Shown: piece by piece, positions 26,128 through 50,917 of the stretch
Position numbering within the stretch: position 1 is the stretch's first letter
Layout of the letters: each line of letters opens with the position of its first letter
Source of the DNA: Gammaproteobacteria bacterium
GTDB taxonomy: Bacteria > Pseudomonadota > Gammaproteobacteria > Eutrophobiales > Eutrophobiaceae
Length of the DNA stretch: 64,000 nucleotides
NCBI GenBank assembly: GCA_021773245.1
Contig: JAJFKK010000126.1
Span: 6,917-70,916 of the forward strand
Direction of reading: 5' to 3'
The notes under the pieces: model-generated
Told to the model about the DNA's origin: nothing
Seen by the model: only the letters and a program-made list of their open reading frames with translations
The model's database searches: none
Position numbers and translations under genes: made by a program

Positions 26128-26261
26128 TGAAAATAATGATATTATTCAATAATTAGGCTCGTTTAGGACGCGCACATTACAATTAGAACAGATGGATGTA
26201 AATAAATAAGCATCGTCCTTTCCGACATAACATATCAGAAGGCATTATTGATTAAATTACA

Positions 26262-27938
26262 GTGAGCTCTATTCCAGAAATTATTAATTCGTCTCGCTCG
26301 ACGAAAACAGAAGGTCATTCTCAAAATGTATGGCTGTCAGATAGTCGAGCTCAGTTATCTGAATTAGAAAAATTGCCACAACAGCTATGCCGGTTAAATG
26401 TTCCTTTTAGTATTGTTGAAAATAAATCTGAAAAAGCAATTGCCTTGGGTGGTTCAATTCAGATTGATGATGTTCAGGGAGATATAAACCAATATAGCTT
26501 ACTCGGATTTTCACCTGCTCAAACTATTAAAGCCTTAGGTGATCAAAGTTTTTGTCACGATTATCACGTTGATTATCCCTATATGGCAGGCTCAATGGCA
26601 AACGGTATTGCCTCTGTTGAATTAGTTGAGGCATTAGCAACGAAAGGCATGCTTGCATCTTTCGGTGCAGCTGGATTGTCATTGAATGAAATAGAAACGG
26701 CGATCAAAAGATTACAAACATCATTAGGCAATAAAACGCATTGTTATAACCTCATTTATAGTCCAAATGAAATAGGACATGAAGATGCGGTTGTTGATCT
26801 TTATTTAAAATACGCTGTGTCATTAATTGAAACATCGGCTTATATGAAGCTAACGTTGCCCGTTGTACGTTATCGAGTTTCAGGGATTTATAAAGATAAT
26901 CAGGGCAACATTGTTGTTCCCAATAAAATTATAGCCAAAGCATCACGAGTTGAACTTGCCAGCAAATGGTTTAGCCCACCACCGGAAAAATTGTTAAATC
27001 AGTTATTAGAGCAGGGTGCGATAACAAAAGAAGAGGCTGACTTAGCTAAACGTATTCCAATGGCACAAGACTTAACAGTCGAAGCAGACTCAGGTGGACA
27101 TACTGATAATCGTCCAGCGATTACCTTATTACCCACAATGATATCGCTGCGTGATCAATATCAAGAAAAGTATAATTATGAAAATTCACTGCGTGTTGGT
27201 GCTGCTGGTGGTATAGCAACGCCTGCATCAGCATTAGGCGCGTTTGCTATGGGTGCTGCTTATATTGTTACCGGTACTGTTAATCAAGCGTGTAAAGAAT
27301 CAGGTTCGTCTGACATTGTAAGAGAGATGTTGGCTAATGCAGAACAAGCCGATGTCACTATGGCACCAGCGGTCGATATGTTTGAAATGGGTGTGAAGTT
27401 ACAAGTGTTAAAACGCGGCACTATGTTTGCGATGCGTGGCAATAAACTTTATGACATTTATAAAAAATACGGATCAATAGATGAAATCCCTGAAATAGAA
27501 AAAGGGAATTTAGAAAAAACGATTTTTAAAATGTCTTTAACCGAAGTTTGGCAAAAGACGGAAGAATTTTTTAATGATCGTGATCCGCGTCAAGTTGAAA
27601 AAGCGGCTAAAGATCCTAAACATAGGATGGCTTTAATCTTCCGTTGGTATTTAGGTTTGTCTTCACGCTGGGCTAATGCCGGTGTAGAAGATCGTCAAGT
27701 TGACTATCAAGTTTGGTGTGGACCAGCGATGGGTGCATTTAATGAATGGACACGTGATACGTTTCTTTCTGAAACCAATAATAGAGATGCGGTAAGTGTC
27801 GCTATGAATATTTTGTTTGGTGCTGCTATTTTATATCGAATAAATGTTTTACTTAAACAAGGTGTAGAGCTGCCGGTTGCGTTAACGCAATTTAAACCTA
27901 TGACACACGAAACAATAAAGAATTATTTATCTGAGTAA
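26262..27938 (+). CDS. pfaD: PfaD-type trans-acting enoyl reductase (nitronate monooxygenase fold)
   Basis: 558 aa. The motifs YPYMAGSMANGIAS, EADSGGHTDNRP and GAAGGIATP are as I recall them from PfaD/PksE-type ER. Immediately precedes pfaA (3-nt gap). GTG start. Confidence 0.85.
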   Translation: MSSIPEIINSSRSTKTEGHSQNVWLSDSRAQLSELEKLPQQLCRLNVPFSIVENKSEKAIALGGSIQIDDVQGDINQYSLLGFSPAQTIKALGDQSFCHDYHVDYPYMAGSMANGIASVELVEALATKGMLASFGAAGLSLNEIETAIKRLQTSLGNKTHCYNLIYSPNEIGHEDAVVDLYLKYAVSLIETSAYMKLTLPVVRYRVSGIYKDNQGNIVVPNKIIAKASRVELASKWFSPPPEKLLNQLLEQGAITKEEADLAKRIPMAQDLTVEADSGGHTDNRPAITLLPTMISLRDQYQEKYNYENSLRVGAAGGIATPASALGAFAMGAAYIVTGTVNQACKESGSSDIVREMLANAEQADVTMAPAVDMFEMGVKLQVLKRGTMFAMRGNKLYDIYKKYGSIDEIPEIEKGNLEKTIFKMSLTEVWQKTEEFFNDRDPRQVEKAAKDPKHRMALIFRWYLGLSSRWANAGVEDRQVDYQVWCGPAMGAFNEWTRDTFLSETNNRDAVSVAMNILFGAAILYRINVLLKQGVELPVALTQFKPMTHETIKNYLSE

Positions 27939-27941
27939 GTT

Positions 27942-30900
27942 ATGTCAAAGAAAAAAAATAAAAATCAAATGCAACCTCTGGCTATAGTCGGTATCGGTTG
28001 TTTATTTCCCAAAGCGGATAACCCTCAAGAGTATTGGACCAATATTCGTGAAGGCGTTGATGCGATAACGGATATTCCTGAGTCGCATTGGAAACCGCAA
28101 GATTATTTTGATGCAGATAAAACTGCGCCAGACATGACTTATGCAAAACGTGGTGGTTTTATTAATGCGCAGGATTTTAATCCATTGTTATATGGACTAA
28201 GTCCAAACAATATTGAAGCAACCGATACCACACAATTGTTAGGTATGGTGGCAACACGTCAGGCGTTAATAGATGCAAATTATTCAACGGCTAAAGATGC
28301 GGGTGATGGGCGTGAATTTGATCGCGATCGCACCAGCGTCATTATGGGTGTGACAGGCACATTGGAGTTAGTTATTCCTCTTGGCGCAAGACTGGGACAT
28401 CCCATCTGGCGCAAAGCATTAGCTGATGCTGGAATAGATCCGGAAACAACAGAAGATGTTGTACAACGTATTGCTGATGGTTATGTGCCTTGGCAAGAAA
28501 ATTCATTTCCCGGATTGTTAGGTAACGTTGCTGCCGGTCGTATTGCTAATCGTTTTGATTTTGGTGGAACTAACTGTGTCGTAGATGCGGCTTGCGCAAG
28601 TTCGTTAAGCGCATTACATCTTGCGGCAATGGAACTTGATTCTGGTAGAGTCGACATGGCTATTACCGGTGGTGTTGATACCTTCAACGATATTTTCATG
28701 TATATGTGTTTTAGTAAAACACCGGCTTTATCACCAACGGGTAATAGTCGTCCGTTTGCGAAAGAAGGTGATGGCACTATTCTTGGTGAAGGTATTGGCA
28801 GCGTAATATTAAAACGACTTGATGATGCAAAACGAGACAACGATAAAATTTATGCGGTGTTACGCGGCATTGGATCGTCATCTGATGGACGAGGTAATGC
28901 AATCTATGCTCCGAGCGCAGCCGGACAAACCAAAGCGTTATGGAATGCCTATCGTGAAGCAGATGTGTCGCCAAGAAGCATTGAACTAGTTGAAGCACAT
29001 GGTACTGGCACCTCAGTAGGTGATGCCGTTGAAGCAACAGCATTATCTGGTGTTTATGCTCAAGACAATGAAGATGAAACATGGTGTGCGATTGGATCAG
29101 TCAAATCCATGATTGGACATACAAAGGCAGCAGCCGGTGTTGCTGGTCTTATTAAAACAGCGATGGCTTTAAAATATAAAGTCTTGCCACCAAGCATTAA
29201 AGTGGATGAACCATTAGAGATGATTAATCCGGGAACATCTCCTGTTTATTTGAATACGGTTAAACGTCCGTGGTTAAAAACACAAGCAACACCACGTCGT
29301 GCGGGTTTAAGCTCCTTCGGTTTTGGTGGCAGTAATTTTCATTGTGTGCTTGAAGAAGCCGAAGAAACGAAAACAGATATCGAATGGGATGGCCATGCTT
29401 TAATTATTGCTTTAAACGCAGATTCAAAAGAAGAATTAATAAAACAATTGCCTGACTCTTCAATTCTTGTTTCATGGAATGAACTAAGGTTCTTTGCTTA
29501 TGACTCATGTCAAAGTTTCAAGAGCGATGCAGCACATCGTTTAACGATAGTCATTGAAAAAAGTAATCCTGATGTTACAAAACACATTACTGATATTAAA
29601 TCGCAATTAAGCTCTTCTTCTGAATCATCTTGGCAAAGACCGGATGGTGTAACTTATAGTTCTGAAGAGAGCAATGACAATGTTGCATTTGTTTTCCCTG
29701 GTCAAGGATCGCAATACACAGGCATGTGTCGTGATCTGGCTTGTCAGTTTCCTCAGTTTTTAAATGTATTGGAACAAGCAAACAATATTTTTATAGAAGC
29801 AACAGGGAAAGAAAGCCTAGGAAAAGAAAGCTTGGGCGATGTGCTTTATCCCATTCCTGTTTTTTCTAAAGCTGATCAAAAACAACAGGAAGAAAATTTA
29901 CGACAAACACAAAATGCACAGCCTGCCATCGGTGCGGTGAGCCTTGGTGTATTAAACGTATTAAATCATTTCTCGGTAAAACCAAAAGCAGCAATTGGTC
30001 ATAGTTACGGCGAATTAACTGCACTGTCTGCAGCAGGTTTGTATGACGCTGAAACATGTCATCGCTTATCCCGAATTCGTGGCGAATTAATGGCCGCAGG
30101 TGAAGGTGATCGTGGTTCTATGTTGGCGGTTGTAGCATCTTATGAACAAGTAGAATCATTATTAAAAGAAAACAATATAGAATTGGTTATTGCCAACCAC
30201 AATTCGCCAACTCAGGTTGTTTTATCAGGTGCCACTGATCAAATAGATGCTTTTGCAAAGGTCGCTAAAGCTGAAAAAATACGGGCAATTAAATTACCTG
30301 TTGCTGCTGCATTTCATAGTTCCTTTGTTGCTGACGCTGCAAAACCTTTCGCTGCAGCAATGGCTCCATTTGAGTTTGATAAAAATACTTATCAAGTATT
30401 ATCAAATACAACAACAGATGCTTATCCTGAAGATACGGATGCAGCGAAACAATTATTAGCGAATCAATTAGCTTCACCAGTGCGTTTTGTTGAACAAGTA
30501 GAAAAACTTTATGCAGAAGGTATTACGACTTTTGTTGAAGTTGGTCCGGGTAAAACATTAACCGGATTAATTAATTCAATTCTTGCAGGCAAGGCAGTTA
30601 TAACAGTTGCAATTGATGCCTCAGTTGGTAAGAAGGAAGGTCAATATGATCTAGCTCTGGTATTAGCGACATTAGCGGCACATGGACAACAAGTTGAACT
30701 TAGTAAATGGGATGGCGCTTGTTCAGAAATGGAAAGACCAGCAAAAGACGCAAAGCCAGCAATGACGATAGCGATAAGTGGTGCGAATTACATGATGCCA
30801 CGTGAACCACGTCCACCAAGACAACCTAAACAAGTAACGAATACCATGACGGATGATGTAAAAACTAATGTTTCTAATAAGAAAACTGAACTAGTAACAA

Positions 30901-33900
30901 CAGGAAATCCTGTTGCCAGTAATGGTTTATTACAAGCAACTCAAGAAAGTATCATTGCTTTACAAAAAATGCAGGAACATACCGCGCGTTTACATCAACA
31001 GTATCTTGAAGGACAAGAAACAGCACAAAAATCAATTCAATCATTGTTAGAGCAACAGCAGCGATTAATGTCAGGACAACCATTAGCTGCTCCTATGCAA
31101 CAGACAGCACAGGTAAGCACGCCAGTACAAGTAAATACTGAAATAATAAAAGCGGAATCAATTAAAGCTCCTATAAAAGAAATACATGAAACGATACAAG
31201 CAACTCCAGCTCAAGATGAACAATCGGATGTTGATATTAATAATTTGTTATTAAAGGTTGTTTCAGAAAAGACCGGTTATCCTTTAGAGATGTTAAGCCT
31301 TGATATGAGTCTGGATACGGATTTAGGTATTGATTCAATCAAGCGTGTTGAAATTCTTTCAGCTTTGCAGGAACAATTACCATGGTCACAAACGGTTAAT
31401 CCGGAAGAGCTTGGTACTTTTCAATTCTTGCAACATATTGTTGAGTTTATTGCTGCGGGCAGGCCTGTAGGAACATCAATAAGTACAGCAGAAAAATCAG
31501 AAGTTACAACAACTCCTCAAATTAATGATAACTTTGCCAAAGTTTTATTGGAAATTGTCTCAGAGAAAACAGGTTATCCAATAGAGATGTTGGAACTAGA
31601 TATGAATCTGGATAGCGATCTCGGTATCGATTCGATTAAGCGTGTTGAAATTCTATCAGCCTTACAAGAGGCGATGCCTGAATTACCAACGATTAGCCCG
31701 GATGAATTGGCTCAGTTACAAACTTTACGTTCTATTACAGAATTGTTTGTTTCTGAACAAACAGAGTCCGTCTCTGCTACTCAGGCAGTAAATACCATTA
31801 ACGGTTTTGCAGATACCTTGTTAGAAGTCGTTGCAGATAAAACCGGATACCCAGTCGATATGCTTAATCTGGAAATGAATCTGGATAGCGATTTGGGTAT
31901 CGACTCAATTAAACGTGTTGAAATTTTATCTGCAATACAAGAATGCATGCCTGAATTACCTTCGGTAAGTCCGGATGATATGGCGACCTTGCAAACATTA
32001 CAGTCTATTGTTGATGTATTTAATATTTCAGAGAATCAGAAATCATTGCCAACAATAAGCAATGATTCAAATTTGTCAGAGGTATTACTCGAAGTTGTTG
32101 CAGATAAAACTGGTTATCCGGTTGATATGTTAAATTTAGAAATGAATTTAGATAGCGACCTCGGAATTGATTCAATCAAACGAGTAGAAATCTTATCAGC
32201 ATTACAAGACAAAATGCCGAACCTTCCAGTCGTAGCAGCAGATGATTTAGCAGCATTACAAACGTTACAACAAATCATTGAGTATATGAATGAGCAGGTT
32301 GTGAGCGAAAACAAAGTAACTCCGGTTACAGTAGATAAAGAAGAAACAATTGAAAATAATAAAGAATCACGAATTGTTAGAAGCGTTGTTCATCTTGTTG
32401 AGATTGATGATGCAGAGGCCAGGCAGAAGGTAGACTTTAATAAAGACAAAGAAATCTGGATTACTAAAGAAGCTGGTGAATTGTCTGAGCAATTAGCAGT
32501 CTCTTTAGAAGGTAAAGGTTATAAAACAAAGCTGATTAATAATGAACAAGAAGTAAAAGGTGACTTTGGTGCCTTGATTATTTGCGCCAAAGCAGAAGCA
32601 GATAAACAATATTTGCTTGATACGTTTAGTTTAATTCAACGTTGTGCTAATAGTTTAAAAAGGTCAAAAGGCATACTTGCTTCAATCACTTCATTAGGTG
32701 GTGACTTCGGGTTTGAAAAAAGCATTGAAGGAAATCCGATTCAAGCTGGGTTGTATGGCATTATCAAAACTGCCGATAAGGAATGGCCAGAAGTTAATTG
32801 CAAGTCAATTGATATCAATACTACGACAACATCACTCGAGATAATTCAAAGTGAACTCTTCCTTGACGGGCCATTAGAAGTTGGTTTAGCTGAAGAGCAA
32901 GCTAAACAACTCATGTTGGAAGAAGAGGAACTCTCTAAAATAAAACAAGAACGAACAGCTTTAAATCAGGATGATCTTGTTGTTATTTCTGGTGGTGCTC
33001 GCGGTGTCACTGCAGAAGTAGCTGTTAAGTTAGCTGAAACATATCAATGTTCCTTATTATTGCTCGGTCGTAGTTCGCAGCCAGAAAATGAACCTGATTG
33101 GTTATCGTCACTATCCGATGCGGCAAGTATCAAGAAAGCAATTATGGATAATAATGAAGAAAAATTACGACCTGCTGATTTAGAGAAACAATACCAATCC
33201 ATACTGGCGAATCGAGAAATTAGAACAACGCTAGATCGAATTGTAAAAACTGGAGCTAAAGCTGAATATGTATCTGTTGATGTCACTAATTCTGATGCGG
33301 TATCAAATGTTATTGATTTGGCCAGAATTGAATTAGGTAATGTCACCGGAATAATACATGCTGCCGGTGTACTTGCTGATCGATTAATAGAAGATAAAAC
33401 AGAAGAACACTTTAATACGGTTTACTCTACTAAAGTTGATGGTTTTCAGAGCCTAATATCTGCAACTGAGAATGACACATTAAAATTGGTCGTTCTATTT
33501 TCATCAACAACAGCAAGACTCGGACGTAAAGGTCAGGTTGATTACGCTGCTGCAAATGAAATATTAAATAAACGAGCAGTATTAGAAAGTCAAAATAGAA
33601 AAGGATGTAAGGTGTTGTCCGTTAATTGGGGTCCATGGGATGGTGGCATGGTTACACCTGCATTAAAGAAACTGTTTTCAGAAGAAGGTGTTGGCGTTAT
33701 TGGATTAAAAACTGGCGCAGAATATTTGATTAATGAAATAGAATCTGATGGCCCTGTAGAGATTGTTGTCCTTGGTGAATCAGACAATATATTGAAAAAA
33801 ATACCATTAAATAATTATTCGGCATCTTCAGTTGAAAGTAGCGATCTATCTATCGCTTTTGAACGAGATCTTTCTGTTAATACACATCCGTTTCTTAAGT

Positions 33901-34694: not shown

Positions 34695-34732
34695 AAGTTT
34701 AGATTTTATAAATCTGAGCGAGTAATAATTTA

Positions 34733-40700: not shown

Positions 40701-41293
40701 ATCAGGGGCTGGTCTATAAAGGCGATACCAACTTTGGCTTTTTCTCCAAGCAAGCTTTGGCTGATCAGATCGGAATTCGTGATGCCAAACCTTATGTTTC
40801 TACAGAACTGGAGCAACGAGTTCAATCCTTTACTTACCCGACAATTGCTCCTATGCCAGCAGATATGATGCGAATGTTGGATGAGATTAGTCTGTTTGAT
40901 ACTGAAGGCGGGCCAAATAATCTCGGTTTTATAGAAGGGACTGCTAAAGTTAAAGAAGATGCCTGGTTTTTTAAGGCACATTTTTACGAAGATCCAGTCT
41001 GGCCTGGATCATTAGGCTTGGAGTCGTTCATGCAATTATTGAAAGTATTTGCCTGGGAACGTTGGCAGGATGAGTTGAAAATAGGTGAGTTTGTCTTTGA
41101 AAGCATGGCTTTGAATCATCTTCATAAATGGGTGTATCGAGGCCAAATTTTGCCTGTAGATGAGCAAGTCACTATTCAGGCTGTGATAACCGAGATTGAT
41201 GATGCTACTAAAACTATTAAGGCGGATGGTTTTTTGACTGTAGATGGAAGAATTATCTACCAGATGAAAGATTTTGCCCTCCGAATCGCATAG
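34733..41293 (+). CDS. pfaC: PfaC-like subunit with embedded acyltransferase: KS - CLF - AT - 2x FabA-type DH (with pseudo-DH partners)
   Basis: KS motifs LDAACSSSLYSL and ECHGTGT. CLF with Cys replaced (TISSEETSGLHAL). AT motif GYSLGE. FabA-like motifs FLTCHFVDDRVMPGTLMYE and FKAHFYEDPVWPGSLGLE. Confidence 0.85.
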   Translation: MAERIAIVGIGGVFPGSSNLDEFWKNILDAKDTAVNVGADRWRLEANDLYSPELAADKVNSRRACLIQDFKFNPAGFNVDASLLQRLDPMYQILLHAGRDAWADAKTDAINKERVGIVIGNIALPTESSSQFSDEVFKQLFEAQLNIEQNNNKESVEPLNRYVAGLPAGLLAKALGFGAGAYTLDAACSSSLYSLKYAIDELIAGRTDVMLAGGLSRPDCLYTQMGFSQLNAISKSGRCSPFDSKADGLVVGEGSGIFVLKRLSDAIEQDDHVYATIEGIGLSNDIEGNIMSPDSEGQGRAMQSAYEMAGWKPNQVQHIECHGTGTPVGDGVEFTSLKNLWKSHNVDGECIIGSVKSNVGHLLTAAGAAALMKTLLAMKHGVLPPTANYESPSNKIDLANSPFKVLDVAEAWDVENNVPRRAAISGFGFGGINAHILLQQYLPENNETLSDVNTEINKIDIAIIGLESRLGPWSNQQEFDETVLFGTDEKLKQPSNCWGADCKNVQGYLIDEVKIPLGRYRIPPAELKEMLPQQLLMLEVAADALQDAGLSELSDEQQCRTGVYIGIALDLNTTNFHFRWMQKKYASEWLKKLGIKLNDTDLSEWIENLKQAFGPALTANRTMGALGGIVASRIARAFRIGGPAFTISSEETSGLHALESGVRALQQNELDQAIVGAVDLASDIRAVKGNIAEIDSIADGATAFVLKRHEDAMRDGDKVYATIKGIGAASAGGCDIKPEQSAMITAIQNACSDAQCHLDKIDFVSQAAKTNAVDIPVLKNAEISKFSLGNSGAANGLMSVASTISALHHCIQPGDNHSKPHYWLRDRIKGSRQALVNATSIDGNCVSVVLEQADTDINVKNISSKLITLSASTKELLIANLNALSFNDVVVDKQEKHRIVILVDDEKEFNQVRNEVITAIENNISIDNGHCFYSASLLAEEGKLAFVYPGSGNHFFGMGQELGVTFPDVLEKLDDENETLATQFAQGRFWKKDDGKELSHEEVIFGQVWLGTFVSDVVASFDIKPDAVIGYSLGETAGFFSTRTWTARDEMLKRIQQSTLFTEELAGPCTSVQKAWGTAKPVDWALGVINTSADKVKAAVEKYEHVYLLIINTPNECVIGGDKTELNKAVKELNAQYHPLSGVTTVHCEVAKPVEKAYRDLHIFETTPPKDVTFYSGIRGGAYEVTQDSAADSILDQALAPFDYTKVINSAYEDGVRLFVEMGPGGSCTRMIDKILEDKPHYAKAVCVKGKNSVDNVLQCLARLYVEGIDVNFSKLQTHKANDKIEYKNFISVKTGGESFKVPQPSISKPDVIKDLQFEVKDNVIELSNTLKNVTPLPMAANDGFQPMIQQMQLTEQARAEAQETFLRVRQGMTETLTQAINMQMQLLGNSDVDLSQASIVPDRLEKVECLFDREQCMEFAIGSIGKMLGSEFADIDQYSTRVRLPDEPLMLADRILEIEGVEDSLKDDPNTNGRVVTEHDVLPGAWYLDQGRIPTCIAVEAGQADLFLSGYLGIDHITKGLAVYRLLDAKITFHGSLPKAGETIHYDIRIEEFFRQDDTYLFRFNFEGTVNGQPLLTMTEGCAGFFTQQELDAGKGIVLTNIEKQPAQGKYTKDWKQLIAMQVESYSDEQLTALRQGDLAACFGESFKNIDLINPVGLPSGRMTLVHRILKLDPNAGRFGIGQITGEADIHPDDWFLTCHFVDDRVMPGTLMYECCLHTLRVYLLRMGWIGEEDEFVYEPIIGEVSQLKCRGQVTEETKAVQYEITLKEIGYREDGTPYVLADALMYGDHRAIVQMKNMSVQLSGLKKEKLEALWQNKNSIETKQVLFDNESILAFATGKPSEAFGDRYKIFDSGRKIARLPGPPYKFLDRIVSIKDCEQWVLKAGGTIEAEYDVPTDEWYFTEDNQPYMPFAVLLEVALQPCGWLAAYLGSALTSDVDISFRNLGGTATQYIKVTPEIGTLTTKVKMTSVSQSGGMIIQTYEYEMTSDQGLVYKGDTNFGFFSKQALADQIGIRDAKPYVSTELEQRVQSFTYPTIAPMPADMMRMLDEISLFDTEGGPNNLGFIEGTAKVKEDAWFFKAHFYEDPVWPGSLGLESFMQLLKVFAWERWQDELKIGEFVFESMALNHLHKWVYRGQILPVDEQVTIQAVITEIDDATKTIKADGFLTVDGRIIYQMKDFALRIA

Positions 41294-41302
41294 AATGAAC
41301 CG

Positions 41303-42502
41303 ATGAAATATTCACGCGTACATATGGAATCCATCGGCTATGAATTGCCACCGGTAGTGATTACTTCTGATGACCTCGAGCAACGTCTAATGCCTATGTA
41401 TGACGCGCTCCATATAGCGCCTGGGCAGTTAGAAGCTTTGACGGGTATTCATGAACGTCGCTGGTGGGAAGAAGGGCATATTTTGTCTGATGGTGCTGCA
41501 AATGCGGCTCGAAAGGCGCTAGATCAGTCAAATGTCGAGGCAAAAGACGTAGAAGCACTGGTTTACACCGGTGTTTGCCGAGAAAACTTCGAACCAGCAA
41601 CCGCTTGTGCCGTAGCAGCTCAATTGGGTATCAGTGATGATGCCAATATCTATGATATTTCCAATGCTTGCTTGGGTGTTATGAACGGGATCATTGATAT
41701 CGCCAATCGCATCGAATTAAAGCAGATCCGTGCCGGTATGGTCGTATCGTGCGAGACCTCACGCGAAATCGTTGAAATTATGATCGAACGCATGTTGAAA
41801 GATAAAACGATAGATATGTTCTCCAGCTCTCTGGCGACTTTAACGGGTGGTTCGGGTGCTGCTGCAGTTTTACTGACTGATGGCTCTTTTGATAATAAAG
41901 AAACACATCGCTTGATGGGTGGCGCAAATCAATCTGCTCCGGAACATCACAAACTTTGCCGTTGGGGCGTTTCAATATCACCAGTAGCCATCGGTGAATT
42001 TGTCTTTTCTCCTGATAAATTATTAGCGGCAATTGATCAGGTAATGGAACCTGACGTTATTCCTTCAGTGGTTAAAGAAGTAATGTCCAGTGATAAATTG
42101 CCACCCGCTTTATCCAGCATGTTACCCAAAGAAAAGCTACCGGCGGCACTGTCTGAATTCATGTCGACCGATTCTGTCTCCGTTTTAAAGCATGGCGCCA
42201 TCTTAGGTGTAAAAACCTGGGGTACATTTTTAACGAGAATGGGTTGGGCTAGAGATCAGGTTGATAAAGTGATTTGTCATCAGGTCGGCGAAGGCCATCG
42301 AGATACAATATTAAGAGAGCTTGGTATCGCGCCTGAAAAAGATTTTAGTACCTATAAATATCTTGGCAATATCGGGACTGTCTCGGTGCCCTTAACAGCA
42401 GCAATTGCTGATCAAAGACAGTTCTTAAAGAAGGGCGATCGTGTTAGTTTTCTTGGTATCGGTAGTGGATTAAACTGCCTAATGCTTGGTTGGGAATGGT
42501 AA
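41303..42502 (+). CDS. oleA: OleA-like thiolase (KAS III/FabH superfamily) with a ~60-aa insertion
   Basis: Cys-His-Asn triad contexts ISNACLG, ICHQVG and YLGNIGTVSVP. Starts 9 nt after the pfaC stop and is followed by oleBCD. 399 aa versus ~320-350 for family members I know. Confidence 0.65.
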   Translation: MKYSRVHMESIGYELPPVVITSDDLEQRLMPMYDALHIAPGQLEALTGIHERRWWEEGHILSDGAANAARKALDQSNVEAKDVEALVYTGVCRENFEPATACAVAAQLGISDDANIYDISNACLGVMNGIIDIANRIELKQIRAGMVVSCETSREIVEIMIERMLKDKTIDMFSSSLATLTGGSGAAAVLLTDGSFDNKETHRLMGGANQSAPEHHKLCRWGVSISPVAIGEFVFSPDKLLAAIDQVMEPDVIPSVVKEVMSSDKLPPALSSMLPKEKLPAALSEFMSTDSVSVLKHGAILGVKTWGTFLTRMGWARDQVDKVICHQVGEGHRDTILRELGIAPEKDFSTYKYLGNIGTVSVPLTAAIADQRQFLKKGDRVSFLGIGSGLNCLMLGWEW

Positions 42503-42584
42503 TAACTCTATTCTTTTGTTTTATCAGATTTTATTTAGCTTAATAATATCACTCCAATTTTTTTCTCTTGTATTCTCGTAATCA

Positions 42585-43691
42585 ATGGATACGGAAAATC
42601 CTGACAGTACTCAAGAACGACGTAAAATTATCCATGTCGATATGGATGCGTTTTATGCTTCAGTTGAACAAAGAGATAACCCTGAGTATAAAGGTAAACC
42701 TGTCGTAGTTGGCGGTACACCCGAGCAACGCGGTGTTGTCGCTGCCTGTAGTTATGAAGCTCGTAAATTTGGTATCCATTCAGCAATGCCTGCGGCACAA
42801 GCATATAAAAAATGTCCGAAAGCTATTTTTTTAAAACCACGCTTTACAGCCTATAGAGAAGTATCCGCACAAATTCAAGATGTGTTTCATCAATTTACAG
42901 AACTAGTCGAACCCTTATCACTTGATGAAGCTTATCTCGACGTAACAAATAATCAGGAATTTTCAGGTTCGGCAACATTAATAGCCAAGCAAATAAAAAA
43001 AATAATTAAAGAAAAGACAGACCTTAATGCTTCGGCAGGCATTTCCTATAATAAATTTTTAGCGAAGATAGCCTCTGATATGGATAAACCGGATGGATTG
43101 TTTCTTATTACACCCGAACAAGGTCCCGAATTTATAAAAACGCTTCCAATACGAAAGTTTCATGGAATTGGAAAAGCAACTGAAAAGCGAATGAATGCAG
43201 TTGGTATACATACTGGAAATGATCTTCTGCAAAAAAGTTTGAATGAACTCGTTATGAAATTTGGTAAAGCAGGTCATTTTTATTTTGATATTGCACGTGG
43301 CATTGATTTACGTCCGGTTAATAATAAACGAGAGAGAAAATCTCTAGGGAAAGAAACGACATTTAGTGAAGATATAGGTGATACGGGTGAAATGTTTAAA
43401 GTACTTGATGAACTTTCAAATAGTGTCGCAAGAAGTCTTTTTGAAAAACAACTGGTAGCGAAAACGATTACTCTGAAGGTTAAATACGCAGATTTTGAAT
43501 CAATTACGCGTAGTCGAACAATTGAAAAACCAACACAATCTGCCAGTAACATAACAAAATTAGTAAAAGAACTATTAAAAGATACAGAGGCAGGGAATCG
43601 CAAAGTACGTCTTCTGGGTGTAAGTACCTCAAAGTTACAGGAAAAAGGATTAAAAGGTATAGATAAAACAGAACAAATGGATTTGCTCTAA
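42585..43691 (+). CDS. dinB: DNA polymerase IV (Y-family translesion polymerase)
   Basis: Canonical N-terminus IIHVDMDAFYASVEQRDNP...KGKPVVVGG...RGVVAACSYEARKFGIHSAMP, plus SLDEAYLDVT and GISYNKFLAKIASD. Confidence 0.95.
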   Translation: MDTENPDSTQERRKIIHVDMDAFYASVEQRDNPEYKGKPVVVGGTPEQRGVVAACSYEARKFGIHSAMPAAQAYKKCPKAIFLKPRFTAYREVSAQIQDVFHQFTELVEPLSLDEAYLDVTNNQEFSGSATLIAKQIKKIIKEKTDLNASAGISYNKFLAKIASDMDKPDGLFLITPEQGPEFIKTLPIRKFHGIGKATEKRMNAVGIHTGNDLLQKSLNELVMKFGKAGHFYFDIARGIDLRPVNNKRERKSLGKETTFSEDIGDTGEMFKVLDELSNSVARSLFEKQLVAKTITLKVKYADFESITRSRTIEKPTQSASNITKLVKELLKDTEAGNRKVRLLGVSTSKLQEKGLKGIDKTEQMDLL

Positions 43692-43786
43692 TTATATTTC
43701 TATTGAAAAGTTTCGAAGTATTTGGCTTGGTGATTAGAGTAATATTCAGTAAACTAGTTATCTTTTTATATTAAAACCAATAACTT

Positions 43787-44674
43787 ATGAAATATCCGGA
43801 TTATCCCTCTGAGTCTTCTTGCTATACATCAGTCAATGGTAGAAGAATGCATTATCTTGAAGGCGGTAATGATAAATCTGAAGTAGTAGTTATGGTACAT
43901 GGTAACCCTAGTTGGTCTTTTTACTATCGCCATCTATTTAGTGCACTCATTGAAAAATACCATTGTGTTGTACCTGATCATATTGGTATGGGTTTATCGG
44001 ATAAGCCTGGTAATGAATATGAATTTACATTGAAACAGCGAGTAGACGATCTTAATGTGCTTCTAAGTTCGCTTGGTGTAGATAAAAATATAACTCTAAT
44101 TGTTCATGATTGGGGAGGCATGATCGCTATGGCTTACGCCACGCGTTATCCAGAAAAGATAAAACGTTTGGTGATCTCTAATACGGCCGGTTTTCATATT
44201 CCGAAAGGAAGAGAAGTTCCTTGGCAATTAAAGCTAAGTCGTACTCCAATAATAGGCGCTTTATTAATTCAGGGATTAAATGCATTTTGTCGAGGTGGCG
44301 TTATTCAATGCGTAACCCGTAATCCGATGAGTAATGAAATAAAGAATGCTTATTTAGCGCCATATGATAGTTGGGCTAATAGATTGTCTGTATTACGTTT
44401 TGTTGAAGATATTCCGCTAGATAAAAAGCATCCTACTTACGATCTTGTTGATGAAGTAGATAAAAACCTAGATCAGTTTTCTAATTTACCCATGTTAGTT
44501 TGCTGGGGTTTAAATGACTTTGTGTTTGACCAATATTATCTTGATGAATGGAAGAAACGAATGCCGAATGCAGAATTTCATGAATTTGATGCTGGACACT
44601 ACTTATTGGAAGATGCGGGCGATGAAGTTATACCAATTATTCAAAAATTTATTAGTAGTAATCCTCTCGGTTAA
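43787..44674 (+). CDS. oleB: OleB-like alpha/beta hydrolase (haloalkane-dehalogenase fold, beta-lactone decarboxylase)
   Basis: VHGNPSWSFYYRHL and the nucleophile elbow VHDWGG (Asp nucleophile), with C-terminal GHYLLED. Directly upstream of oleC (6-nt gap). Confidence 0.75.
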   Translation: MKYPDYPSESSCYTSVNGRRMHYLEGGNDKSEVVVMVHGNPSWSFYYRHLFSALIEKYHCVVPDHIGMGLSDKPGNEYEFTLKQRVDDLNVLLSSLGVDKNITLIVHDWGGMIAMAYATRYPEKIKRLVISNTAGFHIPKGREVPWQLKLSRTPIIGALLIQGLNAFCRGGVIQCVTRNPMSNEIKNAYLAPYDSWANRLSVLRFVEDIPLDKKHPTYDLVDEVDKNLDQFSNLPMLVCWGLNDFVFDQYYLDEWKKRMPNAEFHEFDAGHYLLEDAGDEVIPIIQKFISSNPLG

Positions 44675-44680
44675 TCTTTC

Positions 44681-46336
44681 ATGATTACGGCAAATATTGC
44701 ATCTCATTTACCTGTGATGGCAAAAAAACAACCTGATACCTATGCTGTTGTTAAACAGAATAAGAATAAATCAAAAAAATCATTATATGACACGGCTTAT
44801 ACCTACAAACAGCTGGATGAAGAAAGTAATCTCATTGCTAATGGATTAGAAGCATATGGAGTAAAGAAAGGAACAAGAACTGTTCTTATGGTGCAGCCAG
44901 GACTTGATTTTTTTGCTTTGGTATTTGCATTATTTAAACTCGAAGCGATTCTTGTCGCGGTTGACCCTGGTATGGGAGTTAAGAACTTAGGAAAATGTTT
45001 AAAAGACGCTGAGGCCGAAGTCTTTATTGGAAATACAAAGGCGCATTACGCTAGGGTTATTTTAGGCTGGTCAAAAAAAACTATACATAAAAATATTCTG
45101 GTTGGAGATAACCCGTTAATTAGTCCCTTTATAACAAGTTTAAATAAGATAAAGGAACTTGGAAAAAAAACAGATCGAGAAAGCACTAACACAAAAGCTG
45201 AAAATATTGCCGCAATACTTTTTACTAGTGGTAGTACAGGCATACCTAAAGGTGTGGTTTATACACATGCGAATTTCACAGCACAAGTCGATACATTAAA
45301 ACAACTCTATCATATTCAAGCTGGTGAAATAGATCTGGCAACATTTCCATTATTTGCATTGTTTTCGCCAGCATTAGGGATGACTTCAATTGTACCAATA
45401 ATGGATTTCACTAAACCGGGTTCTGTCAATCCGATAAGAATTATAGATGCTGTAACACAATATAAATGTACCAATATGTTTGGTTCTCCAGCATTACTTA
45501 ATCGTGTAGGAAAATGGAGTGAGAATAAAAATATTAAATTAGGCTCTTTAAAACGAGTACTTTCAGCCGGCGCTCCTGTTGCTCCATTAGTACTAGGGAG
45601 GTTTAAAAGTTTATTAAATAAAGAAACTCAGATATTTACTCCTTATGGCGCGACTGAATCATTACCTGTTAGCTCTATAGGTAGCGATGTAATTTTGAAA
45701 GAAACAGCTAAAGAAACAGCAAAAGGTAAAGGTGTCTGTGTCGGGCAGCCTGTACCTAATCTTGATATAAGAATTATTAAGCTAACTGATGACATTATTT
45801 CTGAATGGAGTGATGATTTAGAATTGCCGGCGATTAAGATTGGTGAAATCTGTGTTAAAGGCCCTCAGGTTACGCGTTCTTACTATAATCGTAATAAAGA
45901 AACAGGATTAGCAAAAATTAGAACGGGTGATAGTTTTTATCATCGTATGGGAGATATTGGTTATCTCGACTGGCAAGACAGGCTTTGGTTTTGTGGCCGA
46001 AAGAGCCAACGAGTTATAACTGAATCAGAAATAATGTTTACCATATGTTGTGAAGCAATTTTTAATGCACATCCATTTGTTTTTCGATCTGCACTTGTTG
46101 GCGCAATAAACAAAAATATAGTAATCCCTGTAATATGCATTGAACTTGAATCTGAGAATAAGAGGTTTAACAAAAAAGAACTTATAGACGAGTTACTCGT
46201 ATTAGCATCTGCATCTGAAGTGACTAAAAACATTAAGCATGTCCTTTTTCATTCTGGTTTTCCTGTTGATATTCGTCACAATGCAAAAATTGGACGTGAA
46301 AAATTAGCAGAATGGGCAACAGAGGAATTATTTTGA
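44681..46336 (+). CDS. oleC: OleC-like AMP-dependent synthetase (beta-lactone synthetase)
   Basis: Adenylation core LFTSGSTGIPKGVVYTH plus YGATE and GDIGYLD motifs. Position between oleB and oleD. Confidence 0.75.
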   Translation: MITANIASHLPVMAKKQPDTYAVVKQNKNKSKKSLYDTAYTYKQLDEESNLIANGLEAYGVKKGTRTVLMVQPGLDFFALVFALFKLEAILVAVDPGMGVKNLGKCLKDAEAEVFIGNTKAHYARVILGWSKKTIHKNILVGDNPLISPFITSLNKIKELGKKTDRESTNTKAENIAAILFTSGSTGIPKGVVYTHANFTAQVDTLKQLYHIQAGEIDLATFPLFALFSPALGMTSIVPIMDFTKPGSVNPIRIIDAVTQYKCTNMFGSPALLNRVGKWSENKNIKLGSLKRVLSAGAPVAPLVLGRFKSLLNKETQIFTPYGATESLPVSSIGSDVILKETAKETAKGKGVCVGQPVPNLDIRIIKLTDDIISEWSDDLELPAIKIGEICVKGPQVTRSYYNRNKETGLAKIRTGDSFYHRMGDIGYLDWQDRLWFCGRKSQRVITESEIMFTICCEAIFNAHPFVFRSALVGAINKNIVIPVICIELESENKRFNKKELIDELLVLASASEVTKNIKHVLFHSGFPVDIRHNAKIGREKLAEWATEELF

Positions 46337-47328
46337 AAGCGTTAGTTACAGGTGGAGGAGGCTTTCTTGGTGGTGAAATTGTCAAAGCATTATTAAAAAG
46401 AGGTGATAGTGTTAAAACAATTCAGCGTGGTAATTATCCTTTTTTGAATGAACTTGGTGCTGAGTCTATCCGCGGTAATCTAACACAACTGGATGATGTT
46501 AATGACGCAATTAGTGGATGTGATATCGTTTTTCATGTCGCAGCAAAAGCAGGAGTGTGGGGCGATTATAATGGCTATTACCAGTCAAATGTCGTTGCTA
46601 CCAAAAATGTACTAGAAGCCTGTCGAAAAAATAATGTTAAATATCTAATTTATACTAGTACGCCAAGTGTTGTTTTTAATGGTGATAATGAAGAAGGTAT
46701 CAACGAATCAGAACCATATATAAAAGAATATTTTAATGCGTATCAAAAAACAAAATCGATAGCAGAAAAATTAGTTCTTGAAAATAATGATGAAGGGCTT
46801 AAGACTGTCGCATTGAGACCGCATTTAATCTGGGGTCCTAATGATCCCCATCTTGTACCTAGAATTATCAGTCGAGCAAAAGCGGGACGTTTAAAGCTGG
46901 TTGGCAATAGAAACAATAAAGTTGACTCATGCTATATAGATAATGCTGTGCAGGCACATATGCTCGCAGCTGATTGTCTTCAGAAAAATATTGATTGTGC
47001 TGGGAAAGTCTATTTTATCAGTAATGATGAACCAATTGGCATGGCTGATTTAATTAATAAAATATTGTCCGCAGCAAAGTTACCTTCTGTTAATAAAACT
47101 ATTCCTGTTTCTGTAGCGTATGTTGTTGGATTTGTTCTAGAAAAAATATATAAATTATTTAATATAAAAAACGAACCGATAATGACTCGATTTGTTGCAA
47201 AACAACTATCTACATCACATTGGTTTGATCTAAGTGCAGCTAAAAATGATTTAGGTTACCGGCCAAAAGTCAGTATTGATGAAGGCATGATAAGGCTTGA
47301 AGAATCACTTGCAGAAGAAATAACTTAA
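46312..47328 (+). CDS. oleD: OleD-like NAD(P)H-dependent reductase (3-beta-HSD/extended SDR family)
   Basis: KALVTGGGGFLGGEIV Rossmann motif and YQKTK catalytic motif. The ATG at 46312 overlaps the oleC end by 25 nt, so the exact start is uncertain. Confidence 0.75.
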   Translation: MGNRGIILKALVTGGGGFLGGEIVKALLKRGDSVKTIQRGNYPFLNELGAESIRGNLTQLDDVNDAISGCDIVFHVAAKAGVWGDYNGYYQSNVVATKNVLEACRKNNVKYLIYTSTPSVVFNGDNEEGINESEPYIKEYFNAYQKTKSIAEKLVLENNDEGLKTVALRPHLIWGPNDPHLVPRIISRAKAGRLKLVGNRNNKVDSCYIDNAVQAHMLAADCLQKNIDCAGKVYFISNDEPIGMADLINKILSAAKLPSVNKTIPVSVAYVVGFVLEKIYKLFNIKNEPIMTRFVAKQLSTSHWFDLSAAKNDLGYRPKVSIDEGMIRLEESLAEEIT

Positions 47329-48050
47329 TGAATAATAGTCTTCAATTTTTAGATAAAAAAATTGAATTATCAAATGATAAAATTCATGTGTTTTTATTAA
47401 ATCTTGAGGAATTTAATTACAAAGAATTTCTATTTTGTTTGTCAGAAGAAGAAAGTGAAAGAGCAACTCGATTAAAAGTAGAAGAAAAAAAGAAACAGTT
47501 TGTTGTTACTAGAGCTGTGTTGCGAAAGTTGTTGTCAAAAAGTTTGAGTAAAGTGGAAGAGGAAATAGTTTTCTTATATGGACAACATAAAAAACCCTAT
47601 ATAGAAAATAAACTTAATAATAAGTCAGTTGAGTTTAATATTTCACACTCTGGTGAATATGCACTTATAGCGATTACACTTGACCGTAAAGTAGGAGTTG
47701 ATATTGAAAAAATCAATAATGATGTGGATTATCAATCATTGTCTAAACGATTTTTTAGTGAAAAAGAAAATAAAGAGTTAGATAAGACGGATAAAGAAAA
47801 AAAATTAGATGCCTTTTATCGAGCATGGGTTAGAAAAGAATCATTCATAAAAGCAATAGGGAAGGGAATTGTTTTTGGCCTTGATAATTTTTCTGTTTCA
47901 TTAGGAGACAATAAAAAAAATAAAGTAAATATTGTTTCCAAAGATATCGATAGTGAACAGTGGTATTGCTACGATTTAATGGAAGTAATTAATTATAAAA
48001 CAGCATTAACAAGTTGTAATGAGAGCGCAGAAATTATTTTTTACCAGTAA
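47328..48050 (+). CDS. Sfp-type 4'-phosphopantetheinyl transferase (PfaE-like)
   Basis: Motifs FNISHSGEYALIA, GVDIEKI and WVRKESFIKAIGKG. Start overlaps the oleD stop (TAATG). Extremely AT-rich coding sequence. Confidence 0.8.
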   Translation: MNNSLQFLDKKIELSNDKIHVFLLNLEEFNYKEFLFCLSEEESERATRLKVEEKKKQFVVTRAVLRKLLSKSLSKVEEEIVFLYGQHKKPYIENKLNNKSVEFNISHSGEYALIAITLDRKVGVDIEKINNDVDYQSLSKRFFSEKENKELDKTDKEKKLDAFYRAWVRKESFIKAIGKGIVFGLDNFSVSLGDNKKNKVNIVSKDIDSEQWYCYDLMEVINYKTALTSCNESAEIIFYQ

Positions 48051-48534: not shown

Positions 48535-48546
48535 AATTAATTATTT

Positions 48547-50912: not shown

Positions 50913-50917
50913 AAAAG

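Follow-up and report, generated by a model that had tools for sequence, protein, structure and literature searches.

The question raised by this locus is whether a Pfa-type synthase encoded directly beside oleABCD supplies its chains to the Ole enzymes, and whether the array acts as a single unit. The window analyzed here, a 64,000-nt stretch of DNA from an uncultured marine gammaproteobacterium, carries the cluster at positions 26262-48050 of its + strand. Our reading, to which we assign a probability of about 0.8, is that this is a "secondary lipid" cluster, Type-I-like and of the same kind as those of Geobacter and planctomycetes, in which Pfa chains would be delivered to Ole, with its genes in two blocks and dinB as a passenger.

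Gene content of the cluster

The open reading frames were recovered exactly where the first-pass annotation had placed them, all on the + strand, in the order PfaD, PfaA, fused PfaBC, OleA, DinB, OleB, OleC, OleD and an Sfp/HetI-type phosphopantetheinyl transferase (PPTase), and its domain and gene-order calls were confirmed by Pfam and NCBIfam profile matches and by active-site motifs (Table 1). PfaD matched TIGR02814 at 631.5 bits (cutoff 449), and its GTG start is kept in 9 loci. PfaA matched TIGR02813 at 1700 bits (cutoff 1010) and contains Pfam KS, AT, four PP-binding stretches, KR and PS-DH, with the KS cysteine in DAACASS, the AT serine in GHSYG and the ACP serines in four LGIDS motifs at residues 1128, 1227, 1318, and 1407. 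In PfaBC, Pfam identified two KS domains, Acyl_transf_1 and FabA in three stretches; the first KS has DAACSSS, the second lacks the catalytic cysteine (ISSEETSG), i.e. is a CLF, and the FabA CHF motif is present. The AT of PfaBC (GYSLG) is PfaB-like, with a PfaB-family match of 108 bits, below the cutoff. The PPTase was matched by Pfam ACPS and AASDHPPT_N and, at 147 bits and below cutoff, by the HetI model. Type I clusters are defined by the pfaBC fusion (Shulse & Allen 2011, PMC3098273), which we found here together with the PfaA domain order, PfaD-family ER and cluster-associated Sfp-type PPTase of that type.

Table 1. Features of the cluster and its flanks (positions in the window)
Feature	Position	Strand	Basis
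hpnA	17686-18672	-	HpnA 496 bits
hpnN	18677-21274	-	HpnN 847 bits
PhyH-like dioxygenase	21325-22071	-	Pfam PhyH
hpnG	22142-22855	-	HpnG 181 bits, just under 187 cutoff
squalene-hopene cyclase (SHC)	22852-24798	-	SHC 805 bits
squalene/phytoene-synthase-family gene (squalene synthase-like)	24918-25973	-	Pfam SQS_PSY
upstream hopanoid block as a whole, divergent (context only)	17686..25973	-	NCBIfam, Pfam
conserved non-coding block, ~60-140 nt 5' of pfaD	26120..26205	+	invariant columns across 9 loci
pfaD, trans-acting enoyl reductase (ER)	26262..27938	+	TIGR02814 PfaD family
pfaA, KS-AT-ACPx4-KR-DH (PS-DH)	27942..34694	+	TIGR02813, Pfam domains
fused pfaBC, KS-CLF-AT-FabA-type DH domains, Shulse & Allen Type I-like	34733..41293	+	Pfam
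oleA, head-to-head Claisen-condensing thiolase	41303..42502	+	PDB sequence matches, Foldseek, PRK09258
clade-specific OleA insertion, residues 223-286	41969-42160	+	
dinB, DNA polymerase IV, intact, at oleA-oleB junction	42585..43691	+	PRK02406
promoter-like/operator element 5' of oleB	43726..43786	+	alignment of 13 loci
oleB, haloalkane-dehalogenase-type alpha/beta-hydrolase; presumed beta-lactone decarboxylase	43787..44674	+	Pfam Abhydrolase_1
oleC, AMP-dependent olefin beta-lactone synthetase	44681..46336	+	NF045785/NF045786/PRK09274
oleD, NAD(P)H-dependent 2-alkyl-3-oxoalkanoate reductase	46312..47328	+	NF042423/NF042422
pfaE-like Sfp/HetI-type phosphopantetheinyl transferase	47328..48050	+	Pfam ACPS + AASDHPPT_N
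downstream context: cNMP-binding protein, class-III aminotransferase, methyltransferase (+), cytochrome P460, OhrR (+)	within 48034..57697	- unless marked	Pfam
downstream context, continued: CDP-alcohol phosphatidyltransferase, hpnK, hpnJ, hpnI, hpnL	within 48034..57697	-	Pfam + NCBIfam (HpnK 355, HpnJ 762, HpnI 406, HpnL 251 bits)

The thiolase, for which FabH was the alternative assignment, proved to be an OleA by its best sequence and fold matches and by its conserved Glu, Cys, His, and Asn. Its best PDB matches were to Xanthomonas campestris OleA (E 1.7e-57, versus about 5e-18 for FabH), the top 28 Foldseek matches were all OleA (TM 0.85-0.89, versus ~0.75 for FabH), and PRK09258 scored 479 bits. 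Glu97, Cys123, His326, and Asn356 are invariant and align with X. campestris Glu117 (trans-subunit), Cys143, His285, and Asn315, the OleA-specific Glu being kept in the window's OleA and in its relatives. The clade-specific insertion measures 52-64 aa across the clade and 64 residues in the window, at a site where X. campestris OleA has three residues; this insertion is possibly a novel detail, as is, possibly, an oleA-only recombination tract.

The window and about 45 related loci all carry oleA, oleB, oleC, and oleD in that order. OleB, whose position is kept in about 45 loci, matched Pfam Abhydrolase_1 and NCBIfam and PDB entries of the haloalkane-dehalogenase family, and its HDWGG nucleophile and GHY motifs fit the Asp-nucleophile haloalkane-dehalogenase type. 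The best equivalog match of OleC was olefin beta-lactone synthetase: the top specific models, NF045785 (Shewanella-type, 646 bits, cutoff 850) and NF045786 (613 bits, cutoff 900), scored under their cutoffs, and the broader PRK09274 model scored 705 bits, above its cutoff of 478. No solved structure matched OleC at E 1e-30 or better. OleD best matched 2-alkyl-3-oxoalkanoate reductase (NF042423, 483 bits; NF042422, 422 bits; both under the 580 cutoff), with a score about threefold that of the next family (HpnA, 148). Both OleC and OleD scored higher on Shewanella-type than on Xanthomonas-type models.

The oleA-oleB junction

The array consists of two tight blocks, pfaD-pfaA-pfaBC-oleA and oleB-oleC-oleD-PPTase, with a loose junction between them. 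The tight 3-9 nt junctions first described were found at pfaD/pfaA (3 nt), pfaBC/oleA (9 nt), and oleB/oleC (6 nt), but not at pfaA/pfaBC, where the gap is 38 nt; oleC and oleD overlap by 25 nt, and oleD and the PPTase gene by 1 nt. At the loose junction, 82 nt separate oleA from dinB and 95 nt separate dinB from oleB. The same pattern was seen in related loci, where junctions of 30 nt or less were counted in 44/51 for pfaBC/oleA, 37/37 for oleC/oleD and 24/27 for oleD/PPTase, versus 2/47 for oleA/oleB.

The DinB protein is a full-length Pol IV (PRK02406, 478 bits, cutoff 256; Pfam IMS, IMS_HHH, and IMS_C). Its gene lies at the junction only in loci L001-L007, L009, L010, L017, and L041, and across 11 related species-level genomes its synonymous sites are saturated although the proteins remain 70-81% identical, i.e. 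it is under purifying selection. In relatives, the junction holds other cargo: alpha-2-macroglobulin with PBP1C, TelA, transporters, toxin-antitoxin genes, an IS1595 transposase and a DNA methylase. The dinB gene, earlier singled out as a noteworthy insert, is likewise a passenger, one of many unrelated genes found at this site, and is limited to one subclade.

Directly 5' of oleB lies an element comprising TTGGTG (43727-43732), a 17-nt spacer, TAAACT (43750-43755) and a conserved leader, AAAACCAATAnnTT, followed by ATG. Every locus whose oleA-oleB gap reaches 176 nt or more has it, no locus with a 24-65 nt junction does, and its core is unique in the window. It agrees with the sigma-70 consensus at 7/12 positions, and a promoter scan did not flag it; judged from its sequence it is a putative promoter, and it could alternatively be an operator or leader element. 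The block upstream of pfaD, AATGATAyTATTCAAyAATTAGG...GCACATTACA...TGGATGyAAA, presumably serves the pfa-oleA block as promoter or operator; neither a conserved RNA fold nor an Rfam match was found for it. The view that the array forms a single transcription unit was not upheld, given the promoter-like element directly 5' of oleB in all open-junction relatives and the opposite-strand genes within the oleA-oleB junction in several of them. A terminator-like hairpin was sought flanking dinB and none was seen, and transcription may therefore run through from oleA into oleB.

Pfa-Ole coupling and competing explanations

The functional coupling of Pfa and Ole that the first-pass annotation had proposed is supported by the closeness of pfaBC to oleA in the 51 related loci and by an order kept across three phyla. 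The arrangement pfaBC-oleA-oleBCD(-PPTase) recurs in Gammaproteobacteria, Planctomycetota, and Desulfobacterales, in about 50 species-level genomes altogether, and pfaBC-oleA-oleBCD is found also in the cultured Aquisphaera giovannonii; because these genomes are independent, the adjacency is not due to chance. Type I clusters have been proposed to feed Ole enzymes (PMC3098273). Further, expression of oleA with pfaA-E in Escherichia coli lacking fadD gave a 31:8 ketone by direct ACP-to-OleA transfer, which implies that OleA uses an acyl-ACP substrate there (PMC6463001), and such direct transfer probably operates in the window's system as well.

In the mechanism that we propose, the PPTase would prime the four ACP domains of PfaA, on which PfaA, PfaBC, and PfaD would iteratively build a methylene-interrupted polyenoyl chain. 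OleA would take up two of these, probably by direct transfer from the ACPs, and condense them head to head to a 2-alkyl-3-keto acid, which OleD would reduce, OleC would close to a beta-lactone and OleB would decarboxylate to a cis-olefin. In this lineage the stand-alone promoter-like element precedes oleB, and the junction before it has gathered unrelated genes, here dinB. The product is most likely a C31:9-type polyolefin. A hot-dog thioesterase was sought among the window's ORFs of at least 120 aa and none was found; the gene for a thioesterase of the PfaT type could lie beyond the window. Chain length and double-bond number are not readable from sequence.

Two competing explanations concern the chemistry. 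The thiolase could be a FabH-type enzyme of the ordinary kind that primes the megasynthase or FAS II, with unrelated hydrolase, ligase, and SDR genes downstream; relatives are indeed named "3-oxoacyl-ACP synthase III" in databases, and the thiolase gives weak FabH-family matches (86-101 bits). These scores are far under the cutoffs of the FabH models, however, and the much better match to OleA structures by both E-value and TM, the invariant OleA-specific Glu, the best matches of the downstream OleC and OleD to olefin-pathway equivalogs and the company of the four ole genes in about 45 loci leave this explanation with almost no credibility. The other is that, as in Shewanella, the synthase is dual-use, making mainly EPA/DHA-type phospholipid fatty acids from which OleA siphons an intermediate, so that olefin is a minor by-product and clustering reflects shared regulation. 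The same Pfa synthase does make EPA in Shewanella and Photobacterium, with C31:9 arising from a 16:4 intermediate (PMC6463001, PMC4882568), and the PfaB-like AT of PfaBC, with its active-site Ser, could off-load a full-length product. Yet oleA within 30 nt of pfaBC in most loci of three phyla fits a dedicated partnership, the cluster lacks an AGPAT/PlsC-type acyltransferase as well as a thioesterase, and reviews report C31:9 from Type I hosts, Geobacter for example, and describe the other pfa/ole products of these hosts as largely uncharacterized (PMC4882568). We therefore regard dual use as unlikely and retain the secondary-lipid reading.

Two others concern the neighboring genes. A co-expressed Pol IV might serve the system by bypassing N2-dG adducts formed by polyene lipid-peroxidation products, which would suit an intact, co-directional dinB under purifying selection in 11 genomes, with no terminator-like site flanking it. 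We consider this role very improbable, because most pfa-ole loci have no dinB, the junction elsewhere holds unrelated cargo that includes transposase and toxin-antitoxin genes, and the conserved oleB element sits downstream of dinB, which places dinB outside the ole block. As for the surroundings, the nesting in a hopanoid locus is real: SHC and hpn genes flank both sides of the cluster, with SHC, HpnN, HpnA, HpnJ, HpnI, HpnK, and HpnL above their cutoffs and the class-III aminotransferase a candidate HpnO, and the nesting is shared by all of the clade in which PfaD is at least 70% identical. Whether it is adaptive rather than merely historical, the hopanoid and polyolefin genes forming one functional, co-regulated membrane-lipid island, seems to us doubtful. 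In its favor, the divergent hpn block lies beside pfaD in every locus of that clade (it adjoins pfaD in L055-L067 and L089), the window's downstream genes, hpnK/J/I among them, recur in five loci (L004, L006, L014, L025, and L026), the squalene synthase-pfaD spacer contains the conserved block, and the only occurrences of TATTCARTAA in the 64-kb window are 5' of pfaD and 5' of oleB. Against it, more distant clusters (those with a PfaD identity of no more than 64%, L013/L018-type loci, and Aquisphaera) have no hopanoid neighbors, the 10-mer common to both sites was defined after the fact, 29/100 shuffles gave at least 2 matches to it, and genes for a cNMP-binding protein, P460, OhrR, and a methyltransferase separate the cluster from hpnK.

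Comparison with known systems

Geobacter was compared by its published gene order, and the nearest loci examined directly were those of a Desulfobacterales MAG (L052) and of planctomycetes (L049, L051, and L090). Production of C31:9 by Geobacter bemidjiensis was reportedly described by Sukovich in 2010. The genes pfaD,A,B,C,oleA,B,C,D,pfaE lie in tandem in this organism, which makes C31:9 (Yoshida 2016, PMC4882568). In G. bemidjiensis Bem the order is identical to that of the window, with ER first, then PfaA, fused PfaBC, oleA, oleB, oleC, oleD, and the PPTase last, and the same logic, Pfa feeding Ole, has been proposed. The gene order had been thought to stand out, but the arrangement is not new: it is already published for Geobacter and is widespread, being found in about 50 further genomes. 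The window differs from Geobacter in having dinB and the conserved promoter-like element between oleA and oleB, in its hopanoid setting, in the OleA insertion and in its uncultured marine gammaproteobacterial host.

In Aquisphaera giovannonii (Isosphaeraceae; CP042997.1, L090), PfaA (2267 aa), PfaBC (2136 aa), OleA, OleB, OleC, and OleD are encoded in tandem, but OleA (350 aa) lacks the insertion, the locus has no dinB and no PPTase gene adjoining downstream, and no hopanoid neighbors were found within 10 kb. This OleA, to which Gemmataceae/Singulisphaera OleAs are related, belongs to an insert-less cluster (representative P0121) that is the nearest insert-less relative of the window's OleA (64-65% identity), whose lineage is nearer to planctomycete OleAs than to that of Shewanella.

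Shewanella oneidensis and S. pealeana resemble the window in their chemistry and in an experimentally supported direct ACP-to-OleA hand-off, and the catalytic Cys is at position 123 of OleA in both systems (PMC6463001). They differ in having separate PfaB and PfaC, pfaD last, unlinked pfaEABCD and oleABCD, the accessory thioesterase PfaT and EPA as a further product. Photobacterium profundum SS9, in which no olefin was detectable, resembles the window in that its pfa and ole operons adjoin and a non-core gene marks where they meet (PMC6463001). In SS9, however, complete operons are separated at that point (pfa / pfaT / oleABCD), whereas in the window oleA stays with pfa and the break comes after oleA. 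Finally, Xanthomonas campestris OleABCD shares with the window the OleA fold and catalytic tetrad, the haloalkane-dehalogenase-type OleB and the OleC and OleD families, but its OleA, about 31% identical to that of the window, is fed by FAS II or acyl-CoA, without a Pfa synthase.

Gene content and enzyme assignments of the pfa-ole array

The ORF listing reproduced exactly the gene map of the first-pass annotation, with all genes of the array on the + strand, and its domain calls were borne out by Pfam and NCBIfam. Motif inspection revealed intact ketosynthase cysteines (DAACASS, DAACSSS) and acyltransferase serines (GHSYG, GYSLG) and four LGIDS motifs bearing the ACP serines; the second KS of the PfaBC fusion is without its Cys and is therefore assigned as the chain-length factor. 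The junctions measure, in array order, 3, 38, 9, 82, 95, and 6 nt, followed by overlaps of 25 and 1 nt. Thus, the spacing of 3–9 nt claimed for the junctions outside dinB needs a sole correction, at pfaA/pfaBC, where the spacer is 38 nt. The window was also scanned over its full length for Rfam families and tRNAs, with no match.

Features of the array and its surroundings (positions within the window)
Feature	Position	Strand	Evidence or remark
Chemotaxis operon	147-10616	+	complete
Globin-PAS-HAMP-MCP receptor, 939 aa	2548-5367		part of the chemotaxis operon
PhyH-family dioxygenase	21325-22071	-	within the hopanoid block
Conserved block in sqs-pfaD spacer	about 26120-26205
pfaD, ER	26262-27938	+	TIGR02814, 631 bits, above cutoff
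pfaA	27942-34694	+	TIGR02813, 1700 bits; KS, AT, four PP-binding domains, KR, PS-DH
pfaBC fusion, 2186 aa	34733-41293	+	two KS-type domains, PfaB-like AT, FabA-type dehydratases
oleA, thiolase	41303-42502	+	Pfam/NCBIfam
OleA insertion, residues 223-286	41969-42160
dinB, DNA polymerase IV	42585-43691	+	Pfam/NCBIfam
oleB element, promoter-like or operator	43726-43786		downstream of dinB; conserved in open-junction relatives
oleB, alpha/beta-hydrolase	43787-44674	+	Pfam/NCBIfam
oleC, ANL ligase	44681-46336	+	best specific matches are two "olefin beta-lactone synthetase" equivalogs
oleD, SDR	46312-47328	+	best matches are two "2-alkyl-3-oxoalkanoate reductase" equivalogs
Sfp/HetI-type PPTase	47328-48050	+	Pfam/NCBIfam
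Class-III aminotransferase	48547-49971	-	best NCBIfam match PigE-like, below cutoff
Cytochrome P460	50995-51513	-	between the cluster and hpnK
CDP-alcohol phosphatidyltransferase family	52121-52717	-	brackets the hpnK-hpnL block
CDP-alcohol phosphatidyltransferase family	57818-58519	+	brackets the hpnK-hpnL block

The assignment of the thiolase as OleA would fail if the protein were an ordinary FabH, and both sequence and fold point to OleA. The top twelve PDB sequence matches were all Xanthomonas OleA (E about 1e-57), with FabH next at 5e-18, and Glu117, Cys143, His285, and Asn315 of Xanthomonas campestris OleA align with Glu97, Cys123, His326, and Asn356 of the window's protein, which are invariant across all relatives aligned. 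A fold search with the AlphaFold model, which has a confident core (pLDDT 85–96), returned Xanthomonas OleA as the first 28 chains (TM 0.85–0.89, E about 1e-28), with FabH and PqsD second at about 1e-19. The PDB matches and the fold search together rule out FabH. OleB is of the haloalkane-dehalogenase type, the family expected from its biochemistry, and contains the HDWGG nucleophile motif. OleC and OleD are candidate assignments, as they score under the strict NCBIfam equivalog cutoffs, and no other family scores close.

Distribution of the arrangement and its hopanoid flanks

Searching each GTDB species, represented by a single genome, for OleA gave 54 loci (L001–L054), onto which the window's proteins were then mapped. 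The order pfaBC-oleA-oleB-oleC-oleD, usually with the PPTase next, was found in about 50 of the 54, mostly in metagenome-assembled genomes (MAGs) of uncultured marine Gammaproteobacteria labeled "Thiotrichaceae bacterium UBA973/UBA7357/UBA7359," OFTM63, and similar, and also in Phycisphaeraceae, Pirellulales, another Planctomycetota MAG, and one Desulfobacterales MAG. PfaA-PfaBC-OleA-OleB-OleC-OleD lie likewise in tandem in the complete genome of the cultured Aquisphaera giovannonii, and the closest insert-less OleA cluster (representative P0121, 65% identity) is made up of proteins from planctomycetes (Aquisphaera, Singulisphaera, Gemmataceae).

The gene order does not, as first proposed, stand out, being both this widespread and already published for homologous clusters: that given by Yoshida et al. 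(PMC4882568) is the window's order without dinB. The Type I cluster, set by the pfaBC fusion and found in Geobacter, Desulfuromonas, Pelobacter, and Gemmata, was proposed as the source of olefin precursors, with ole genes "often linked" (Shulse & Allen 2011, PMC3098273); both PMC3098273 and PMC4882568 give C31:9 as a finding for Geobacter. Further, an Escherichia coli fadD mutant with oleA and pfaA-E produced a 31:8 ketone, and it was concluded that OleA draws acyl-ACP directly from PfaA, the thioesterase PfaT being accessory only (Allemann et al. 2019, PMC6463001). The central inference of the first-pass annotation, that the megasynthase product is made for head-to-head condensation, is therefore reasonable, yet homologous clusters have been published with the same idea. 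Overall, the array is a Type-I-like pfa-ole cluster within a marine gammaproteobacterial clade, for which we infer by homology a C31:9-type polyene as product, and the known mechanism of the pathway is unchanged by these data. What is extended is the range of the Geobacter/planctomycete-type cluster, which now includes a widespread uncultured marine gammaproteobacterial lineage. Metagenomes hold thousands of close relatives of this OleA, pointing to a probable source of very-long-chain polyenes in plankton or sediment.

The reported nesting of the array in a hopanoid locus is real, with hpn-type genes on both flanks: upstream and divergent, a squalene-synthase-family gene, SHC, HpnG, a PhyH-like dioxygenase, HpnN, and HpnA, and downstream, HpnK, HpnJ, HpnI, and HpnL. 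A metagenome scan with PfaD, combined with mapping of the window's proteins, placed the divergent hpnA-hpnN-PhyH-hpnG-shc-sqs block beside pfaD in each locus that had a sufficient flank and a PfaD of at least 70% identity (L055–L067 and L089); at a PfaD identity of 64% or less, no locus had the block. Downstream hpnK/J/I were also found in L004, L006, L014, L025, and L026. Hopanoid nesting is thus a stable feature of the clade, and other pfa-ole hosts are without it. A literature search (OleA, pfa, and hopanoid) found no paper describing the nesting, and this stable embedding offers a testable hint on the physiological role of these hydrocarbons.

The sqs-pfaD spacer contains a conserved block, in which no conserved RNA fold was found; a riboswitch or attenuator upstream of pfaD is rejected on this ground. 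A 10-mer, TATTCARTAA, tried as a regulatory sequence shared by pfaD and oleB, was without statistical support. Several neighboring genes deserve mention. The class-III aminotransferase, kept beside the cluster in L010, L014, L016, L026, L032, and L033, is a candidate HpnO-like hopanoid aminotransferase, and the paired CDP-alcohol phosphatidyltransferase-family genes may hint at head groups of the inositol or cyclitol type. The window showed no hpnH. The PhyH-family dioxygenase is 77–89% conserved in relatives, and a cytochrome P460 gene lies downstream of the cluster.

The oleA/oleB junction

Comparison of junctions across the 54 loci revealed that pfaBC/oleA is at most 30 nt in 44 of 51 loci (median 9 nt), which supports the proposed functional coupling of the Pfa synthase with the Ole enzymes. 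The junctions oleB/oleC (31 of 44), oleC/oleD (37 of 37, with a median overlap of 25 nt), and oleD/PPTase (24 of 27) are likewise mostly at most 30 nt. The corresponding figure for oleA/oleB is 2 of 47, with more than 150 nt in 19 loci. The cargo of the open junction varies by genome and comprises an alpha-2-macroglobulin with PBP1C, TelA, an ion channel with an SBF transporter, SRPBCC proteins, a GGDEF protein, DUF2189, AbiEii-like and HicB-like toxin-antitoxin genes, and dinB. In two loci, the gap between oleB and oleC is occupied by an IS1595 transposase and a DNA methylase. A number of these cargo genes are encoded on the opposite strand.

When the 130 nt before oleB were aligned, an element, CTTGGTG-N17-TAAACTA, and the leader after it proved to be conserved. 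All loci whose oleA-oleB gap reaches 176 nt have this element, the cargo-free 252–254-nt spacers of L026 and L028 included, and no locus with a junction of 24–65 nt does; sites equivalent to the window's lie in L001–L006, L009, L010, L012, L015, L019–L021, L026, L028, L029, L032, L033, and L041. Read as a sigma-70 promoter, the element agrees with the consensus at only 7 of 12 positions. A consensus promoter scan of 40500–48700 was uninformative, with 18 promoter-like matches versus 28.8 expected. No terminator-like site flanking dinB was found in the same interval, and read-through from oleA may therefore occur.

A single obligatory transcript, as first proposed, is not supported by the open oleA/oleB junction, its mixed-strand cargo, and the conserved element before oleB. 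The simplest reading of the junction data is that oleBCD-PPTase of this lineage would have gained its own promoter or operator, thereby splitting the operon after oleA, and that the relaxed junction would then have collected passengers, dinB among them. The dinB gene is intact and is held at this junction under purifying selection in eleven relatives (70–81% amino-acid identity, synonymous sites saturated). Nevertheless, its distribution is that of junction cargo and marks it as such rather than as a pathway component, and a role for it in the pathway is not supported. In genomic terms, oleA belongs with the Pfa synthase rather than with oleBCD, which fits the published acyl-ACP hand-off model. 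The ole block is separable behind its own conserved element, so that passenger genes collect at the junction, and the presence of dinB is explained in this way.

Open and tight oleA/oleB junctions do not track pfaBC similarity (L014, L016, and L025 are tight, and the close relatives L012 and L015 open), and the open form may have spread by recombination inside the cluster. The pfaBC/oleA spacer is about 240–290 nt in five loci (L001, L008, L009, L030, and L041), compared with the usual 9 nt or so. L027, L039, and L040 contain pfa and oleA with no oleBCD within the flank retrieved, and may be ketone-only producers or have a relocated ole block; in L039 and L040, the PPTase directly follows oleA, and L039 has a 553-aa ORF at 10803–12464. 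In the related loci L029, L032, and L033, a small SRPBCC (Polyketide_cyc2) gene of lipid-binding type recurs immediately before oleB in opposite orientation; it could encode a pathway-linked lipid carrier or be simply inherited cargo.

Constraint, probable replacement, and an insertion in OleA

No other protein of the array is nearly as constrained as OleA, which is 85–87% identical where its neighbors are about 60%. For most relatives, saturated synonymous sites rule out that this identity stems from recent horizontal transfer, and we retain that explanation only for the comparison with L001, L002, L004, L006, and L041. Here, oleA has a nucleotide identity of 0.90–0.96 and a fourfold-degenerate-site identity of 61–70%, whereas the neighboring genes are all saturated (33–46%). 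The limits of the tract coincide with the borders of the gene, and the rest of the window's backbone is closest to L014, L012, and L015. Unsaturated sites confined to oleA look like allelic replacement of this gene alone, with breakpoints at its borders.

The window's OleA is 399 aa long owing to a clade-specific insertion, which measures 64 residues against X. campestris OleA and about 52 against the pfa-linked OleAs of L051 and L052. The insertion sits between the Cys-bearing and His/Asn-bearing halves of the thiolase fold, is fixed in length and net acidic, has four Pro-capped helix-like repeats, and is 55–75% conserved, compared with 78–93% for the core; AlphaFold places short helices there with pLDDT below 50. 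A function in ACP docking or channel capping is speculative. After clustering at 50%, nearly all full-length OleA representatives are without the insertion, the sole 403-aa exception having unrelated sequence at the site. The OleAs of Xanthomonas, Desulfobacterales, and most planctomycetes lack the insertion, but it is present in Pirellulales L049 and Phycisphaeraceae L048, whose OleAs are both 70% identical to the window's, which suggests inter-phylum transfer. The insertion, the constraint on OleA, and the oleA-only tract may be features new to science.

In a joint reading, to which we give roughly one chance in eight, polyolefin and hopanoid synthesis would be co-inherited, and perhaps co-regulated, as one membrane-lipid island of an abundant clade of uncultured marine Gammaproteobacteria; the acidic 52–64-residue helical insertion of OleA would dock on the tandem ACPs of PfaA, and the split of oleBCD-pfaE behind its own promoter would tune ketone/olefin output. 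If this were true, the clade would be a major unrecognized oceanic source of C31:9-type hydrocarbons.

Elsewhere in the window, the chemotaxis operon encodes CheA, CheW, CheR, CheD, CheB, a ParA-like ATPase, and a STAS protein, and its globin-PAS-HAMP-MCP receptor suggests aerotaxis in the host organism.
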